Source: Opitutales bacterium
GTDB taxonomy: Bacteria; Verrucomicrobiota; Verrucomicrobiia; Opitutales; PNEW01
Reading direction: 5' to 3'
Length of the DNA stretch: 32,000 nt
Assembly: GCA_965219535.1 (NCBI GenBank)
Contig: CBDCNV010000001.1
Location: 330,001 to 362,000 of the forward strand
The translations under genes and the position numbers were made by a program. Below are positions 12,394 to 19,095 of this stretch, in pieces. The notes under the pieces were generated by a model. That model was not told the DNA's origin and ran no database searches. It saw nothing but the letters and a program-made list of their open reading frames with translations. Every line of letters begins with the position of its first letter. Position 1 is the first letter of the stretch.

Positions 12394-14259
12394 TCAAGCG
12401 GGATCTTTCTTCGCAGTCTTTGCTTGATCAACGTAGATGCTTATTTCAGCTTTCTCATCACCCAGTAGTTCCTGAGCCCGCTTAAGCGCTCGAGCAGTGG
12501 ATAAGGTAGGATTTTGTGTGACGTCAGGGAAAATGTTTTCACGCCCAATGATTTCTAATAAACCTGAATTCTTTAAGACGCGAATGACATCTTTCCTTGC
12601 TTCGCTCACCAGTAGGTAGCGATCCAGGTCTTTCATGTATACAATAAGTTCTTCCAATGATAAAACGCTGGTCGCGTCTAAATGGTGCGCATTGCGCATT
12701 TTCAACACAACAATTTTCAGGTTAGGGTCTTCAACGATTCTTCTCATCTGGTCCCGAAAAAGTTCAACCGCGCCAAAAAATAATTCACCTTCGACGTGGA
12801 CGATTGAAATCTCAGGGTGCGTTCTTTTATTGTCTTCAAGTTGGGTTAATTGTCCTTCATCGGTAAATGTATACTCTACTAACTCTGGCATCGCCGCTTT
12901 ACGTAAGAAAAGGAGAATGGATATTCCTGCACCAAAATAGATCGCAGTATCTAAACGGAACAGCAATGTCCCAATAAAGGTGGTAACAAAAACAATGGCA
13001 TCTGACCGAGTAGCTTTCATAACAACTTGTATCGTATGCCGATTGATAAGCGAAATTCCTATACTGATTACGAGTATCGCAAGAGATGCTTTAGGGATGT
13101 AACTGATAAACGGGCCAAGGGCAAAGACACCGACAATACAAAAAATGCCGGTAATAATACTTGAGCACGCTGTTGCAGCACCACTCATAATGTTGAGTGA
13201 TGATCGGGTCAGCGATCCAGAAGCAGGCATCCCCGAAAGGAAGCCACAGCAAAGATTAGCGACTCCCATACTTAACATCTCTTGATTGGTGTCGAGGCGA
13301 TCGCCTGAACGGGCAGCCAATGATTTACCGATAGATGATCCCTCTAATATGGCGAGAAAGGAAATCGCCAACGCCAAACTCGCCAATTCACTTATCCATT
13401 GGAAATTAAAGTTAGGAAGGGTAAAAGCCCAGTGATGGGCGTTGATTGAATTGAGCATGGAGAGAGGGGCCAAATCCATATGAGCAAATGTGGGAGTTTG
13501 AAGTAAATAATTTATACCCATTGCGACTGCAGCCATTAGGAGTAAAGTGATGACGACGTTGGGTAGCGTTTTAAATTTCCTCAAGAGAAAGAAATATATA
13601 ATGACTGTAATTATACTTATTACAACCGAAGGCCAGTGCGTAAGGTGCAAAGAAAATAGTGTCTGTCGACAAACATGATAAAAGGTAGATGCCCCCGGTA
13701 TTTCAAAACCGAGCACACTTTTTACCTGGTTCGCAATAATTAATATCGCTGCACCTGTGATATAACCAGTGACGACACTACGTGAAACATACTGAATAAG
13801 ATTTGCTACACGAAGGTATGCGCCGAGAATCATGATGATCCCGACCATGAAGAGGAGAAGTGGCATCATTACCACTTTTGCTAGTGTCGTCCCTCCTATT
13901 GCAAGAAATGAACTGAAGAATAATACCGCGGTCGCGTTTGTCGGGCCCAAAGTGATAAACCGAGATCCAGAGAATATCGGTCCTATGATCGAAGCCACCG
14001 CTGCCCCGAAAACGCCGTACTGTATGGGAATCCCGGCGATTAATGCGTAGGCCATACCCTGTGGAAAAGTGAGCAGTGCTACGTTCAGCCCGGCCTTCAA
14101 ATCACTATTTAGTTTTCCCTTATTATAATCTTTTAAAACACGCCCAAGGGGAAAGAAATCTAACTGATTGTTCTCGGCAAGTGCGGTAAACCCTCTTCGG
14201 ATAGTCCTCCATATATTTAACCGTCGACTAAAAGGGGGTACGGATTGTTTTGTTTCCAC
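12394..14259 (-). CDS. SulP-family anion transporter with C-terminal STAS domain
   Basis: 621 aa. N-terminal SulP signature region (GLNVALLTFPQGMAYALIAGIP), a polytopic core and a C-terminal STAS-like domain (IVHVEGELFFGAVELF ... LKMRNAHHLDATSV). Confidence 0.85.
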   Translation of the reverse strand: METKQSVPPFSRRLNIWRTIRRGFTALAENNQLDFFPLGRVLKDYNKGKLNSDLKAGLNVALLTFPQGMAYALIAGIPIQYGVFGAAVASIIGPIFSGSRFITLGPTNATAVLFFSSFLAIGGTTLAKVVMMPLLLFMVGIIMILGAYLRVANLIQYVSRSVVTGYITGAAILIIANQVKSVLGFEIPGASTFYHVCRQTLFSLHLTHWPSVVISIITVIIYFFLLRKFKTLPNVVITLLLMAAVAMGINYLLQTPTFAHMDLAPLSMLNSINAHHWAFTLPNFNFQWISELASLALAISFLAILEGSSIGKSLAARSGDRLDTNQEMLSMGVANLCCGFLSGMPASGSLTRSSLNIMSGAATACSSIITGIFCIVGVFALGPFISYIPKASLAILVISIGISLINRHTIQVVMKATRSDAIVFVTTFIGTLLFRLDTAIYFGAGISILLFLRKAAMPELVEYTFTDEGQLTQLEDNKRTHPEISIVHVEGELFFGAVELFRDQMRRIVEDPNLKIVVLKMRNAHHLDATSVLSLEELIVYMKDLDRYLLVSEARKDVIRVLKNSGLLEIIGRENIFPDVTQNPTLSTARALKRAQELLGDEKAEISIYVDQAKTAKKDPA

Positions 14260-14351
14260 GATAAAAAGATATTCTATACTAAGAAATTAATTGGAGCAAT
14301 GCTTTAGAAATAATAAATAAATCTCCTAATTTAAGTAGTCTTAATCTCATC

Positions 14352-15266
14352 TTATTCAGTTATTTTAGTAGAGTTCTGTAAGCGATCAATCCAGTTTTCA
14401 ACCACGCTTAATACATTGGGAGTATTTGTATCATGCAGCAATAGATGAAAGGCTTCGGGATAAAAATGCTTTTGTTTGTCTGTGCTATTTAGGCGTGCAT
14501 AAAATGATTCAACTCTGTCTGCTTTGATAAAAATGTCCTTTCCGGCATATAGAAGTAATACTGGCAAATTTACTTTACTGGCTGCCTTGCTGCAATTTTC
14601 AATCATTTTCAATAGATTATAATAAAATCTCAGGGTAAAACATTTTAGTCTGTGAGGCGCCTCTTCGAGATATATTTCGTATTCATCGTCACTACTGACG
14701 CGGGTTGACCGGTCCTTATCTTTATTGAACCACTCGGGTGGAATTTTTATCCGGGGTAAGGTTTTCGTCAATAATCGCCATAAGCAAATCTGCCATCGCT
14801 GCAAATGAATGTCTAATTCAGTTACCGGGGTAAATAAAATCAGGCCATCGATACCGGGTAGATTATTTTCACTAGCGCAAGCATTGATCGCAACTACAGC
14901 CCCCATGCTTTCACCGGCAAGTATATGTATGGCATCGGGATTTAAGGTATAAACATAATCGCAAAATTCTTTCAGGTCACTTGTCAGAATATGCCAATCG
15001 ATAAGATCTCCCCGACGTTTTAACTTGGGGTCGTTTCCCTGGGTACGCATTTCAAAGGCATAGGTTACAATATTTTTTTGTGCTAAGTGAGTACCCAAAG
15101 GGTCGAAATCATTTGCCGATCCACCCAAACCGTGGACCGCAATCAGGACCACGTTTGGTTGGTCTGCCCCCTCCTTATTATCTAACCAATAGGTATAGTT
15201 GAAACTTTCGCCGTCACTGCTTGTCCATAGGCTGGAATTCTTATCTATGGATTTATTCATTGACAA
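14352..15266 (-). CDS. Alpha/beta hydrolase (lysophospholipase / monoacylglycerol-lipase-like)
   Basis: HGLGGS oxyanion region, nucleophile elbow GESMGA, and a C-terminal HLLLHD histidine region. 304 aa. Confidence 0.75.
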   Translation of the reverse strand: MSMNKSIDKNSSLWTSSDGESFNYTYWLDNKEGADQPNVVLIAVHGLGGSANDFDPLGTHLAQKNIVTYAFEMRTQGNDPKLKRRGDLIDWHILTSDLKEFCDYVYTLNPDAIHILAGESMGAVVAINACASENNLPGIDGLILFTPVTELDIHLQRWQICLWRLLTKTLPRIKIPPEWFNKDKDRSTRVSSDDEYEIYLEEAPHRLKCFTLRFYYNLLKMIENCSKAASKVNLPVLLLYAGKDIFIKADRVESFYARLNSTDKQKHFYPEAFHLLLHDTNTPNVLSVVENWIDRLQNSTKITE

Positions 15267-15468
15267 TTAGTGACGGGTAAAAATTAAGACCTTTGTTTAA
15301 TATTCGTTCAATGGACATCTAATAATAAAGGTAATTGAATGCGTCCAATTGGATAAAAAGGATTTGGTTTGATGATAGAGTAATCGGTGATATATTATAT
15401 AATAAATACAGCTATTTAACTTTTATCACGGTAAAGTTGGGATAATTTTAATTAAATGAGGAATTAAT

Positions 15469-17724
15469 ATGAGTAAATTGAAAATTCTATCGTCCCTATT
15501 TATTACACTGGGTCTGGGGATATCCAGTATTCTTAATGCTCTTCCTGAGAATCTCGAAACATTCATAGACTTTGAAAATTTTTCGGCCGAAGGCACAGAT
15601 TTTACCCTTGGCAATCCTCCGTTCACTATTCGGGTGATAAACTTTACTTTGGAAACTGTAGAGAACCCAAGTCTAGCGCGTTCGGGGACGAAGGCCCTGG
15701 TTCTTGTTCCCGGTGCTCAGGAAGGGAAAGTTTTATTCGAACGAGGAGTCAATGAGCTTCAGTTCTATGCGGCCGAAACTAACGGCGCTGGGCGAATAGA
15801 ACTAAGAGATGAAAACTTTCAAACCATATCTCAAGAAGGGATTATTAATGGCTTTACGACTGATATTAGCCCGGGTGCTAATCCTCCCTTGAGAAGTTTC
15901 GTCGCCTTTGGTGGCGATATACAGGATACATCTGATCTCAACTTTACAAATGGTATAAAAGAACTAAAGGTGATCAATGTAACGGGTCAATTTTCTCTCG
16001 ATGATATCGGGTTTACTTACGTTGATGGTCCTCCTAATAACACCGTCTTTGAAGATTTTGAGGATTTGAATAATCATATCCTCTTCTCGAATCCTGCGGA
16101 TCGGGTAAATTTTACTCTTGGTCAATCACCCTTTACAGCAACTTTTACCGGAGGCATTGCACAAATCGCTTTCGGCACCGATGACGTTAATTCACCCTTA
16201 AATTCTACCTTTCCCATTCCAGCCACCGATGCATTCGGCAGGCAAGCACCGGGAATCTGGAATATTCAAGATGATACCCTGGGAACGATCACCTTTGAAA
16301 CCCCCGCGGCCAAGGTTCAATTTTACGCGGCGGTTTTTGTTGAAGGAGACGGTGTCATCAGTGTTTTTGACACGGAAGACAACCTTCTCACTACAATTAC
16401 AGATTTACCGTTAAATATTAGATTCGAATCCGGCTTGGATTTTACTTTCTTTGATTTAAATGCTGAAGCGTTAGGAGCCCCTGGAGGAATAGGAAAAATA
16501 ACCTACCTTAATACCCCTTTGTTTGCTCCCGGTGCTGACTTTGGTGATAGCAGTATTGATGATTTTGGTTTTACCCCCCTCGGAGCCCCGGGGACTGATG
16601 GCGGACCACCTCCCGCAACTGCTCCTTCGATCACTACCCAGCCGGTAAGCCAGGAGATCGCATCCGGTGCCTCAGTGAGCTTGGCCGTCACCGCTAGCGG
16701 TGACGATCTTATCTACCAGTGGTTTACCGGCAACAGCGGTGACACCACCAGTCCTGTCGCCGGTGCGACGGGAGGTACCCTGGATACGGGCGCTCTCACC
16801 GCGAACACAAATTTCTGGGTGCAGATCATAAACGCTGGAGGCAGTGCTGACAGCGTTACCGCGGTCATCACCGTATTGGCACCGTCCGTCCCGCTCGTGC
16901 TTGATGGCTCGGGAGACATCGCCGGAGAGAACATCCAACATCCTAATGGAAACGTCTTCGACCAGATTCTGCTTACGGGTGAAACGATCCAGCTACAGGC
17001 CAGACCCGGGCAAATCACCCGTGTCTCCTTCATGGACGAAACCGAGGACATTGTACAGGTCGAGTTCTCAGGCGTCGGTAATTTTACCGTTACCCTCGAC
17101 CCGGCAACCTTCCTGCCACCGGCTATTCCCCCACGCTACAACCAGGCCGTAGAGTACGTGACCGGTAAGCCGGGCGTGGTCATCGATGGAGCGGACGCCA
17201 ATACCTTCTTCAGTATTTTCACCGTAGGATCGATTAACGCAGTGAACCAGGCGCTCTTCCCCGAGGGACAGGTCTACGACGCGCAGGCGGACGTGACCCT
17301 GGTGGAAGTTGTCAATTCTACGGGCATGGGCGGCATGCAGCTGTCGAACGCCGCGTTTAGTGGAAGCACGGGCAAGGTGGGTGTCGATGCGCGCGGGGTA
17401 CCGATCGCGGTGCGCTTAACGGTAGGCGACATCGATGCTGATGGTGACGCGGTACCACACCTGTTATTTGGATCAGGTTCCTTCACCGTAGCAGCCGGCA
17501 ACCCAGGGTTGCGGATCACGGGAGGTGACTTATTACAGACAAACGGGGCCGCAGTTGTGGTGGCGGAGAGTGGATCGACGACGACCGGGTTTGACACTCT
17601 GATCACACAGAACAATTTCAAGTCCGACAACACTCCTCAGCCGACCCTTAGCATCGATGCCACTTTCGCCAACGAAGATGGGGATGAGATTATGGTGACA
17701 GTCGATGAGATCACGATTGAGTAA
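15469..17724 (+). CDS. Secreted multidomain protein: signal peptide, two copies of an unrecognised module, an Ig-like domain and a G/A/V/T-rich C-terminal domain
   Basis: AGGAA Shine-Dalgarno-like motif ending 5 nt before the ATG. Signal peptide MSKLKILSSLFITLGLGISSILNA. The module motifs F-x-DFE, FTLG-x-(S/P)PF, (V/L)QFYAA and DD-x-GFT occur twice. Ig-like segment TTQPVSQEIASGASVSLAVTASGDDLIYQW. DIDADGD Ca-binding-like motif. The first ~370 aa are paralogous to the next gene. Confidence 0.85.
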   Translation: MSKLKILSSLFITLGLGISSILNALPENLETFIDFENFSAEGTDFTLGNPPFTIRVINFTLETVENPSLARSGTKALVLVPGAQEGKVLFERGVNELQFYAAETNGAGRIELRDENFQTISQEGIINGFTTDISPGANPPLRSFVAFGGDIQDTSDLNFTNGIKELKVINVTGQFSLDDIGFTYVDGPPNNTVFEDFEDLNNHILFSNPADRVNFTLGQSPFTATFTGGIAQIAFGTDDVNSPLNSTFPIPATDAFGRQAPGIWNIQDDTLGTITFETPAAKVQFYAAVFVEGDGVISVFDTEDNLLTTITDLPLNIRFESGLDFTFFDLNAEALGAPGGIGKITYLNTPLFAPGADFGDSSIDDFGFTPLGAPGTDGGPPPATAPSITTQPVSQEIASGASVSLAVTASGDDLIYQWFTGNSGDTTSPVAGATGGTLDTGALTANTNFWVQIINAGGSADSVTAVITVLAPSVPLVLDGSGDIAGENIQHPNGNVFDQILLTGETIQLQARPGQITRVSFMDETEDIVQVEFSGVGNFTVTLDPATFLPPAIPPRYNQAVEYVTGKPGVVIDGADANTFFSIFTVGSINAVNQALFPEGQVYDAQADVTLVEVVNSTGMGGMQLSNAAFSGSTGKVGVDARGVPIAVRLTVGDIDADGDAVPHLLFGSGSFTVAAGNPGLRITGGDLLQTNGAAVVVAESGSTTTGFDTLITQNNFKSDNTPQPTLSIDATFANEDGDEIMVTVDEITIE

Positions 17725-17960
17725 GACGATCAGCCGTCGCCCGCGCAGTAGCGGGGCTATGGCCGACAGGTTGCCGAATGTGGGTTATATCTAACGGTTA
17801 TCACTTATAAACTACTTAAACGTAATCGTTCACCTTCAAACTTGGCCGGCAATAGGTCTGCGGTTATGGATTGAAGAGGGTTGTAGACTTATAAATGTAC
17901 ACTGATAACTGTAGACCGCTTAACAATGATAGTATTTTTATATATATCCACCTGCACCGT

Positions 17961-17989
17961 TTGACACGCTTCTTAGGTATTTATATATT
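17961..17989 (+). promoter_or_regulatory. Near-consensus sigma70-type promoter for the second paralogue
   Basis: -35 TTGACA (17961-17966), exactly 17-nt spacer, -10 TATATT (17984-17989). It lies 20-26 nt upstream of the GTG 18010 / ATG 18016 starts, with AAGGG between. Confidence 0.5.
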
Positions 17990-18009
17990 AATCGGAATTC
18001 GAGCTAAGG

Positions 18010-19095
18010 GTGAAAATGAAAAATATCGTTATGTTATTATTAACTTTCTGGTTACTGGGTGTGTTGTGGAGCGCACCTGAAGACCTCGACGTGTTCATTG
18101 ATTTTGAAAATACCACGGGAGATGATGACTTTGTTATCGGTCAATCACCGAACAGTGTTCGTTTTATTGGTTTTACATTGCAGTCAACGAATGATCCTGA
18201 CCTCTCGCACTCGGGGACGAAATCATTGATCATTGAAACGGGCGAAGAAGGTAAAATAATATTTGAGAGAGGAGTAAATTTACTTCAATTCTATGCTGCT
18301 GAGACGAACGGGGAGGGGCGGATTGAACTCAGAGACAAAAATGCCTTTATCCTGCATAAAAATGGGGTCGCAGTAAGCTTGCCTACGAGTATTAGTCCCC
18401 AGGTTAATCCTGTCTTACACAGTTTTATCGCTTTCAGCGGGAATTTAAACGATGGTAACGATCTTAATTATACCAATGGTATTAAAACAATATCATTAAA
18501 GAATGTATCAGGTCAAATTGCTCTCGATGATCTGGGTTTTTCCTATGTCGATGGCCCGCCCAACAATACCCTGTATGAAGATTTTGAAAATATATTTTCC
18601 GATCCGCAGTTTGAAGATCCAGAAAATTTCACTTTGGGTGAATCACCCATTACTGCTACCTTCACCGGGGGTCTGGCTCGAGAAATTGGCGTATCAAGGA
18701 CATATAATCATACCTTTCCTTTTGGGGATAATCTCCTCTCCGAGGCGGCGTGGGGCGTCTATAACGGCACTACCGGGACAATAACATTCGAAACCCCCGC
18801 CGCTCAGGTTCAATTTTACGCATCTGTTTATGATAAAGATGATGGCGAGATCAGGGTCTTTGATTCTCATGATAACCTAATTGGTATAACGACTAAAATC
18901 CCGAATGATATTTCTATTGAGGTAAGCACAGATCCCATCCCATTTTATGATATTAATGCCATAGATTTAGGAGCGCCCGATGGGATCGGTAAAATTGAAT
19001 ACATTAATAAACCACAAAATTCACTGGTTCTCTTTTTTAATTATAACACCATTGATGATTTTGGTTTCACCTCTGTAACAGTATTACGAATTTAA
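18010..19095 (+). CDS. Secreted two-module paralogue of the preceding gene, lacking the Ig-like and C-terminal domains
   Basis: Signal peptide MKNIVMLLLTFWLLGVLWSA. Collinear with aa ~25-370 of the 751-aa protein (e.g. GVNLLQFYAAETNGEGRIELRDKN versus GVNELQFYAAETNGAGRIELRDEN). It ends 10 aa after the last DDFGFT motif. ATG at 18016 is probably the true start. Confidence 0.85.
   Translation: MKMKNIVMLLLTFWLLGVLWSAPEDLDVFIDFENTTGDDDFVIGQSPNSVRFIGFTLQSTNDPDLSHSGTKSLIIETGEEGKIIFERGVNLLQFYAAETNGEGRIELRDKNAFILHKNGVAVSLPTSISPQVNPVLHSFIAFSGNLNDGNDLNYTNGIKTISLKNVSGQIALDDLGFSYVDGPPNNTLYEDFENIFSDPQFEDPENFTLGESPITATFTGGLAREIGVSRTYNHTFPFGDNLLSEAAWGVYNGTTGTITFETPAAQVQFYASVYDKDDGEIRVFDSHDNLIGITTKIPNDISIEVSTDPIPFYDINAIDLGAPDGIGKIEYINKPQNSLVLFFNYNTIDDFGFTSVTVLRI

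Follow-up and report, generated by a model that had tools for sequence, protein, structure and literature searches.

In a 32,000-nucleotide stretch of an Opitutales genome (Opitutales bacterium, GenBank assembly GCA_965219535.1, contig CBDCNV010000001.1, positions 330,001 to 362,000 of the forward strand; the whole stretch is called the window, and coordinates are counted from its first nucleotide), the gene for a 751-amino acid secreted protein (15469-17724, + strand) was confirmed to change base composition partway along its length, far beyond chance. The break is best explained as the boundary between two multigene-family parts with different histories: a variable N-terminal scaffold that has the composition of its genome, and a GC-rich cassette, consisting of an immunoglobulin (Ig)-like domain and a C-terminal domain (CTD), that ends many other secreted proteins in the same group of bacteria. 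At a probability of roughly 0.55, we favor the reading that the cassette is old and of GC-rich origin, was spread among paralogues and is still ameliorating.

The G+C content of the tract 16575-17785 was 0.586, compared with a mean of 0.426 (standard deviation 0.025, maximum 0.475) for 568 other 1211-nt segments of the same 32 kb (z = 6.5). In a 300-nt profile, G+C of 0.55-0.61 was confined to 16501-17700 and the remaining bins of the 32 kb were at or below 0.507. At codon positions 1, 2 and 3, G+C rose from 0.51, 0.40 and 0.37 in the 5′ part of the gene to 0.60, 0.48 and 0.66 in the 3′ part; G+C at third positions (GC3) was 0.32-0.46 in the 21 other long open reading frames (ORFs) of the window. 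An initial annotation, made from the sequence alone, had pointed to this intragenic break in composition and codon usage, and its spot counts (22/60 G+C at 15481-15540, 38/60 at 17281-17340) were exact. It had also regarded the antisense ORFs over the 3′ part as a side effect of composition; this is so for these and for out-of-frame ORFs, as stop codon counts of the five non-coding frames fall from 13-34 over the 5′ part to 4-32 over the 3′ part. The switch was correctly placed just past the last (second) DDFGFT motif, as GC3 of the window gene climbs over roughly 16550-16650, but it is not completed within a few codons, as had been stated. Averaged over 67 full-length paralogues, GC3 across amino acids 351-400 was 0.36, 0.48, 0.54, 0.53 and 0.70, a transition at amino acids ~361-400, or about 30-40 codons.

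The gene and its parts are as follows.

15469-17724, + strand: gene (ORF) for the secreted protein, 751 amino acids, one of dozens of paralogues per genome in low-GC Opitutales.
15469-15540, + strand: probable Sec signal peptide (MSKLKILSSLFITLGLGISSILNA), whose translation has a basic N-terminus, a hydrophobic core and small residues before the likely cleavage site.
15541-16581, + strand: variable N-terminal scaffold of two diverged repeats (amino acids ~25-186 and ~187-371), with a genome-like GC3 of about 0.37-0.40.
16551-17724, + strand: shared cassette, from the DDFGFT motif to the stop codon, 76-85% identical in nucleotide sequence between family members.
16582-16623, + strand: Pro/Gly-rich linker (LGAPGTDGGPPPATAP), seen in the translation.
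16624-16872, + strand: Ig-like domain, Pfam Ig_7 (PF19081), amino acids 386-468, E = 1e-09, 39 bits, above the gathering score of 27.3 bits.
16876-17721, + strand: all-beta CTD, amino acids ~470-751 with a conserved core at 476-751, about 90% identical between paralogues.

Each scaffold repeat is closed by a DD(I/F)GFT motif, and the two repeats align with 32% identity (E = 4e-05). Pfam gave no family other than Ig_7 in the protein and NCBIfam gave none, leaving the scaffold without a match; its detectable homologues numbered 46, every one from the same low-GC genomes, and scaffolds of paralogues were 30-60% identical. When the window was compared with other loci using blastn, alignments started at 16541-16564, the DDFGFT motif, and ended at 17720-17731, the stop codon. 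Within the linker, G+C of codon positions 1 and 2 was 0.68-0.77 across paralogues. The Ig part of an AlphaFold2 model matched Ig C2/I-set structures (e.g., 3bfo_A, TMt 0.85).

A protein search with amino acids 369-751 returned 324 matches, in which the final ~276 amino acids were 75-92% identical on proteins of many lengths, preceded by CAP, CARDB, CarboxypepD_reg, RCC1, PQQ or NHL domains; several of these matches shared the same large contigs. A scan of one genome per GTDB species gave 119 relatives, the best 80 of which were all in two Opitutales metagenome-assembled genomes (MAGs), OY829953.1 (OY), a closed 4.49-Mb chromosome, and CBDANS01 (CB). After deduplication, the fetched loci of the two MAGs gave lower bounds of 52 and 45 distinct CTD copies, with a median identity to the window CTD of about 90%, and many of the copies were arranged in tandem arrays. 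Full-length paralogues (60-77% identical) made up about 80 of the 101 family matches in the fetched loci. All 74 primary CTD copies were GC-rich (GC 0.527-0.585, GC3 0.54-0.72, with flanks at about 0.46-0.47), and GC-rich copies were also present in two further genomes of 5.05 Mb and 3.1 Mb, giving at least four genomes in total. The clade carrying the family is a low-GC one within the Opitutales (43-49% GC).

Each paralogue consists of a signal peptide, a rapidly evolving two-repeat N-terminal region that is particular to this clade and at host composition (GC3 about 0.40), and the cassette of linker, Ig_7 domain and CTD (GC3 about 0.64). The compositional break is a property of this family, being shared at amino acid ~375 by 67 paralogues. 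Averaged over these, GC3 was 0.34-0.49 at amino acids 1-375 and 0.55-0.75 at amino acids 376-751, and identity to the window protein rose at the same point, from 0.3-0.6 to 0.7-0.95. Other secreted Ig-domain genes of the same genomes show the same GC3 enrichment, an observation that the initial annotation had itself named as speaking against its proposal. The exact 751-amino acid protein was found on European Nucleotide Archive (ENA) contigs from two other metagenome assemblies (L001 and L002). The orthologous locus of OY829953.1 (L003) was 95.5% identical in nucleotide sequence to window positions 13000-19071 over 6 kb, and its gene encodes 751 amino acids with 97.7% amino acid identity and the same break. 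Because the exact protein is present in other assemblies and the L003 orthologue is intact, the junction is neither recent nor an assembly artefact. Close relatives had been suggested as a place to look for a full-length gene of uniform composition; they do carry the full-length gene, but with the same break.

Kilobase tracts have been exchanged between paralogues by homologous recombination or gene conversion. Two CB genes (CB_L035_2030 and CB_L046_3677) had 0 mismatches over 2 kb, namely the last 1300 nt before the cassette and its first 700 nt, and then, starting inside the CTD, 20-32 mismatches per 100 nt, while two OY genes (OY_L023_6560 and OY_L047_3674) had 17-49 mismatches per 100 nt upstream, followed by almost none over 1.3 kb. 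The window gene differed from its L003 orthologue by about 2 mismatches per 100 nt except in two clusters within the cassette, which are probably recombination or conversion patches.

16596-16684, + strand: cluster of 16 mismatches to L003, over a background of about 2 per 100 nt.
16876-17127, + strand: cluster of about 39 mismatches to L003, in which the L003 allele is nearer the family majority.

The best sampled paralogues matched the window alleles at 11/16 and 18/37 patch sites and the L003 alleles at 9/16 and 25/37; allelic recombination with an unsampled strain and ectopic conversion would both fit these patches and are indistinguishable for the window gene.

The common ancestry of the cassette copies is about twice as recent as that of the N-terminal halves to which they are joined. 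Among 68 full-length paralogues, pairwise identity at 4-fold degenerate sites was 0.346 in the N-terminal half, 0.442 in the linker and Ig domain and 0.531 in the CTD, and the 4-fold divergence (K4) was 1.55, 1.1 and 0.76, respectively. Since the ancestor of the cassette copies is more recent than that of the N-terminal halves, the cassette was spread or homogenized across paralogues that already existed. Comparisons between OY and CB orthologues were restricted to clearly syntenic pairs and used qualitatively, as the reciprocal-best-hit set was contaminated by antisense and repeat ORFs. Third-position identity was alike in the cassettes (0.63-0.68) and in syntenic single-copy genes, single-copy orthologues differed at about 45% of 4-fold sites between these two genomes, the one genome pair examined, and for most copies the best within-genome and the best between-genome identity were both about 0.85 at the nucleotide level. 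Two marks of concerted evolution were thus found, sharp mosaic tracts and a younger exchanged region, and a third, within-genome paralogues that are closer than orthologues, was absent.

Surface-protein families that undergo partial concerted evolution include the mycobacterial PE/PPE and chlamydial Pmp proteins. The window family resembles these in its size, its conserved and variable parts, its sharp mosaic tracts and the lower synonymous divergence of the exchanged part; it differs in that homogenization is weak, in that the conserved part lies at the C-terminus and has a composition of its own, and in that the proteins are unrelated. Prokaryotic concerted evolution has been surveyed elsewhere (PMC6053082).

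To what extent the cassette is at compositional equilibrium was read from its synonymous sites. At 4-fold amino acids of the CTD, GC3 did not track conservation (rho 0.01), and the effect is therefore regional rather than one of per-site selection; highly conserved N-terminal columns had a GC3 of 0.50 and variable CTD columns one of 0.69. Polarized recent third-position changes comprised 295 from G or C to A or T (S>W) and 86 in the opposite direction (W>S), a ratio of 3.4. Stationary evolution simulated on the same tree and passed through the same pipeline gave ratios of 1.5-1.7 (maximum 2.08), and the S>W excess persisted in pairs from 2% to 13% divergence. Because the parsimony pipeline inflates the ratio under stationarity, a two-state non-stationary maximum likelihood (ML) model was added, using 207 4-fold sites in 86 copies. 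The fit gave a root GC (pi_root) of 0.88 and an equilibrium GC (pi_eq) of 0.39, with a present 4-fold value of 0.65 (likelihood ratio test 38.9, p = 4e-10), and fixing pi_eq at 0.65 was worse by 34 log-likelihood (lnL) units. Bootstrap ranges were 0.76-0.94 for pi_root and 0.32-0.53 for pi_eq; with the root on the outgroup-favored branch, the estimates were 0.85 and 0.41. The 4-fold GC of the window background is 0.46 and that of GC-rich Opitutaceae CTDs is 0.88. As fitted, the synonymous sites of the cassette are off equilibrium, and their 4-fold GC is decaying from about 0.85-0.88 to about 0.39-0.43, the host background.

Drift of horizontally acquired DNA toward the composition of its host is the amelioration concept of Lawrence and Ochman. 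Like such DNA, the cassette has a third-position GC that is off the host value and drifting toward host equilibrium; unlike the usual case, it is intragenic rather than an island, is present in dozens of dispersed copies that change in parallel, and has no known donor. Synonymous sites out of equilibrium and moving to host composition were found, a result sensitive to rooting, and an identifiable close donor was not. In the reading that we favor, a cassette equilibrated to high GC would have entered an ancestor of the low-GC clade, the CTD being at home in Opitutaceae of 60-70% GC. There it would have joined an existing paralogue family or overwritten native CTDs, it would then have spread by duplication and ectopic recombination, and all copies would since have been ameliorating in parallel. 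As the best-fitting model gives the cassette an ancestor with the 4-fold GC of GC-rich Opitutaceae genes and the scaffold is at host equilibrium, the joining of a GC-rich cassette to native scaffolds is plausible. To this extent the foreign 3′ cassette of the initial annotation stands, its compositional history being unlike that of the scaffold; the timing, the scope and the supporting arguments given for it do not.

GC-rich imports into this gene class do occur, as seen in protein P0064 (L161 8001-10004, ENA ERZ21829562). In this protein, an NHL passenger with a GC of 0.69-0.73 and a GC3 of 0.82-0.86 is fused to the usual cassette, in surroundings of 33-41% GC DNA with integrase, resolvase and transposase genes. 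The passenger looks like a much fresher GC-rich import.

Several points weigh against an old GC-rich import. A GC-rich donor was not found, the sampled GC-rich CTDs (GC3 0.7-0.95) being at most ~50% identical and forming a separate clade. A neighbor-joining tree nests the cluster of GC-rich composition among CTDs from low-GC contexts, and GC3 grades toward the core of this cluster, from 0.41-0.45 in CTDs of 55-75% identity through 0.49-0.53 at ~75% identity to 0.54-0.70 in the cluster itself. At 4-fold sites of the cassette, C is raised far more than G (C from 0.25 to 0.40, C/(C+T) from 0.34 to 0.62), which is no simple mixture of donor and host usage. The ML model assumes a tree, an assumption that recombination violates, and tip roots remove its signal, though such roots cost 10-19 lnL units and make little biological sense.

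The best surviving alternative, which we consider possible but rather unlikely, is that the cassette was enriched in GC in place by recombination, through GC-biased gene conversion (gBGC). In one version, repair bias would keep cassette GC3 about 0.2 above the genome equilibrium; in a hybrid version, a burst of gBGC during amplification would have raised GC that is now decaying. The cassette is the only part of the gene similar enough (76-85% nucleotide identity) to recombine between dozens of dispersed copies, tracts of ectopic recombination are documented above, and the effect is regional rather than per-site. In favor of gBGC, the GC shift begins where DNA homology between copies begins, the GC3 gradient toward the core of the multi-copy cluster is one that gBGC predicts, and low-GC CTDs surround this cluster in the tree. 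In the N-terminal half, GC3 also rises weakly with conservation (rho 0.18-0.22). Higher GC3 has been reported for recombining bacterial genes (Lassalle et al. 2015, PMC4450053), and the cassette resembles these in that raised GC3 is limited to the recombining part of the gene; the existence of gBGC in bacteria is disputed (PMC8153448). The direction of change speaks against this alternative. The ML equilibrium at 4-fold sites was 0.39-0.43, not 0.65, the S>W excess was about twice the stationary expectation, and C and G were raised asymmetrically. Neither an equilibrium GC above background (pi_eq 0.39-0.43 against 0.46) nor a W>S fixation bias was seen; with an equilibrium at background and recent changes biased toward AT, the cassette shows the opposite of what a bias acting today would produce. 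The hybrid version is compatible with all of these observations.

Selection on codon usage or mRNA, by which GC-ending codons would be favored for translational accuracy, speed, co-translational folding or mRNA stability, is improbable. No other part of the protein is as conserved as the cassette, in which C-ending codons are preferentially enriched, but within the CTD GC3 is independent of per-site conservation, the conserved N-terminal columns are no higher than 0.50, and the estimated equilibrium is that of the background. Both gene halves are on one mRNA, so expression level cannot differ between them. Homologous CTDs in low-GC genomes function at a GC3 of 0.41-0.45. In 78 metagenome loci from the Joint Genome Institute (JGI) with distant CTD relatives, from genomes of 60-70% GC, CTD GC3 was 0.65-0.96 and the mean difference between CTD and flank was -0.009; CTD GC3 was 0.42 in two marine low-GC loci and 0.41-0.53 in divergent CTDs from low-GC genomes. 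As CTDs occur at low GC3 in low-GC genomes, the domain has no intrinsic need for GC-rich codons. A tblastn search for highly expressed reference genes, with EF-Tu, GroEL and L2 queries, gave no match in 767 kb of low-GC sequence.

The initial annotation had proposed a recent horizontal acquisition fused in frame to the window gene alone, which is now very hard to sustain. Such an event would produce a sharp GC and GC3 break within one ORF, and GC-rich imports are known in the gene class. However, the acquisition is not recent, since the sister genome (L003) has the same 751-amino acid gene with the same break and GC-rich copies are present in at least four genomes. Nor is it a fusion of this gene: the break is repeated at the same codon in 67 paralogues, no fewer than 52 and 45 genes of the two MAGs terminate in the cassette, and proteins with CAP, CARDB, RCC1 or NHL domains carry it as well. 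At least 97 further copies in the two genomes have a pairwise K4 of about 0.76, and the short paralogue downstream, described below, is a deletion product. No mobility genes adjoin the window gene, whose neighbors are of housekeeping type (hydrolase, sulfate transporter, PhyH); the junction was not searched for direct repeats. A recent genomic island or foreign segment was rejected as a class for the tract, which is present in a relative (L003) and has no adjacent mobility genes. An assembly chimera at about 16.55 kb, for which the sharpness of the break speaks and nothing more, can be dismissed almost entirely, as the junction is identical in the window, L001 and L002 and 95.5% identical in the closed OY829953.1 chromosome (four independent assemblies), the reading frame is unbroken and 67 paralogues have the same junction. 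Even taken together, a recent single-gene fusion and a chimera retain very little probability; the remainder goes to histories other than those named here.

Some family genes in other genomes do adjoin integrase, resolvase, transposase or Prim-Pol genes (L158, L162 (3.1-Mb genome) and L161), and part of the spread of the family in these genomes may be linked to mobile elements. A 3.46-kb stretch containing a family gene and its downstream flank was 99.1% identical between OY829953.1 (L038 2589-6050) and CBDANS01 (L035 3735-7196), two species-level MAGs whose syntenic single-copy genes otherwise differ at about 45% of 4-fold sites; this could be due to recent transfer between lineages or to a binning or assembly cross-over.

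The CTD was found by an exhaustive HMMER search in 719 representative clusters at E ≤ 1e-3 (390 at E < 1e-30). It is always at the extreme C-terminus, usually after Ig domains, on proteins with signal-peptide-like N-termini, and its passengers include S8 and sedolisin proteases, NHL and RCC1 propellers, CARDB, MBG and CAP. Relatives with a named source were from Opitutaceae or Opitutus; as far as sampled, the domain is confined to Opitutales. Amino acids 470-751 had no match in Pfam or NCBIfam (E ≤ 1), PDB sequence and profile searches returned Ig domains and no CTD relative, and nothing specific on this domain or on Opitutales surface-protein families was found in the literature. AlphaFold2 predicted an all-beta structure for the Ig domain plus CTD (pLDDT 95.3). 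Because Foldseek with this model gave Ig matches only, the CTD was modeled alone, again as all-beta (pLDDT 95.8, pTM 0.93), and Foldseek with that model gave no significant match in PDB (best E 1.8, TM 0.10-0.13) or BFVD. As a C-terminal module that dozens of secreted proteins combine with variable passengers, the CTD would most simply serve in surface anchoring or export; judged from this architecture only, it would display the passengers on the cell surface, and the Ig domain of the cassette would be a spacer.

C-terminal sorting and anchoring systems include the CTD of the type IX secretion system (T9SS) of Bacteroidota, the PEP-CTERM/exosortase tags and the beta-domains of autotransporters. 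The window CTD is like these in its conservation and in its place at the very C-terminus of many otherwise unrelated signal-peptide proteins, often after Ig-like spacers, with dozens of client genes per genome and with proteases, beta-propellers and adhesin-like repeats as passengers. Its length of about 276 amino acids greatly exceeds that of a T9SS CTD or PEP-CTERM tag, and the protein ends in ...VDEITIE, lacking both a hydrophobic or basic tail and an aromatic last residue. Each of the three was considered as an identity for the CTD and rejected. A T9SS C-terminal sorting domain has about 80-100 amino acids and would have been expected among the Pfam and NCBIfam matches, of which amino acids 470-751 had none at E ≤ 1. 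For a PEP-CTERM/exosortase substrate, the sequence end (...GDEIMVTVDEITIE) is without a hydrophobic segment and there was no NCBIfam match. For an autotransporter (type Va) beta-domain, there was no Pfam match and no PDB barrel match (E 1.8, TM 0.10-0.13), and the terminal residue is Glu.

A broader reading, which we regard as doubtful, joins function and composition. The CTD would be an Opitutales-specific, previously undescribed display or export domain of new fold with at least 50 clients per genome, and GC-biased repair would have driven the spread of the cassette or retained its GC excess. If this is true, the GC-rich cassette overwrote native AT-rich CTDs throughout the family by ectopic gene conversion, and the GC3 excess of about 0.2 is not mere legacy, making it direct locus-level evidence for gBGC in bacteria.

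Two features next to the cassette had been used in support of a fusion.

17731-17770, + strand: GC-rich palindromic element resembling repetitive extragenic palindromic (REP) sequences, inside a roughly 48-nt insertion (~17727-17775) and outside the cassette.
18010-19095, + strand: downstream paralogue that has lost its CTD by deletion, with the junction at about 19071, just past its DDFGFT motif.

The GC-rich run had been described as continuing past the stop codon, and G+C at 17725-17785, directly 3′ of it, is indeed 41/61. This run is not part of the cassette but a separate REP-like insertion, ~17727-17775 being missing from the orthologous locus L003 (48 gap columns). Across the family, G+C directly after the stop codon was down to 0.41-0.45. 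The motif of the element, GCCGTCG.CCCGC...GCGGG.CTATGGC, has a single copy in the window and 6 further copies after stop codons of family genes (L026, L034 twice, L051, L059 and L067). The RNA folds at -27.5 kcal/mol, with a z of only -1.8. The element is a short GC-rich imperfect palindrome, is repeated intergenically and is present or absent between strains, which were the properties tested. Other short repeats were seen in the 100 nt 3′ of family genes (L003-L076), namely GATTGCGGAT-type and GTGTTAGGTTTTAAG-type units, GGTCAAAACGTCAAAAGGTCAAAATGGAGGAGACC and (CACTGTT)n runs (e.g., L007 4850-4960, L028 2470-2590, L026 4850-4900). Given these repeats in the 3′ flanks, the duplicated or exchanged unit may reach past the stop codon in sub-families.

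The short downstream paralogue had been cited for ending 10 amino acids past the equivalent motif. Its orthologue in L003 (5081-7009) encodes 640 amino acids, with a CTD of its own (GC3 0.41, 55% identity to the window CTD) directly after the scaffold; compared with L003, roughly 930 nt are deleted from the window copy. By these alignments, the paralogue is a CTD-deletion derivative rather than an unfused ancestor. In L001 (12548-13631), it is split further into ORFs of 276 and 89 amino acids, so it may be decaying.

Elsewhere in the window, a sulfate transporter/STAS gene on the - strand (13100-13999) had 4-15 mismatches per 100 nt to L003, compared with about 2 in its neighbors, which suggests that this ordinary single-copy gene contains a patch of allelic recombination.

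The processes involved, namely domain cassettes, gene conversion in multigene families and amelioration, are known ones in combination. What is unusual is that the break is intragenic, that dozens of copies are concerned and that the CTD family is undescribed and structurally unmatched. When these genomes are annotated, a GC break inside a gene should be read as the family cassette, as otherwise dozens of genes per genome would be wrongly flagged as transfers or chimeras. For genome evolution, about 100 dispersed cassette copies with a single compositional history, beside gene halves at host equilibrium, constitute an internal control for rates of amelioration and for biased conversion in bacteria. 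For cell biology, a CTD carried by at least 45-52 secreted proteins per genome is a good candidate for an unrecognized surface-anchoring or export signal of the Verrucomicrobiota.

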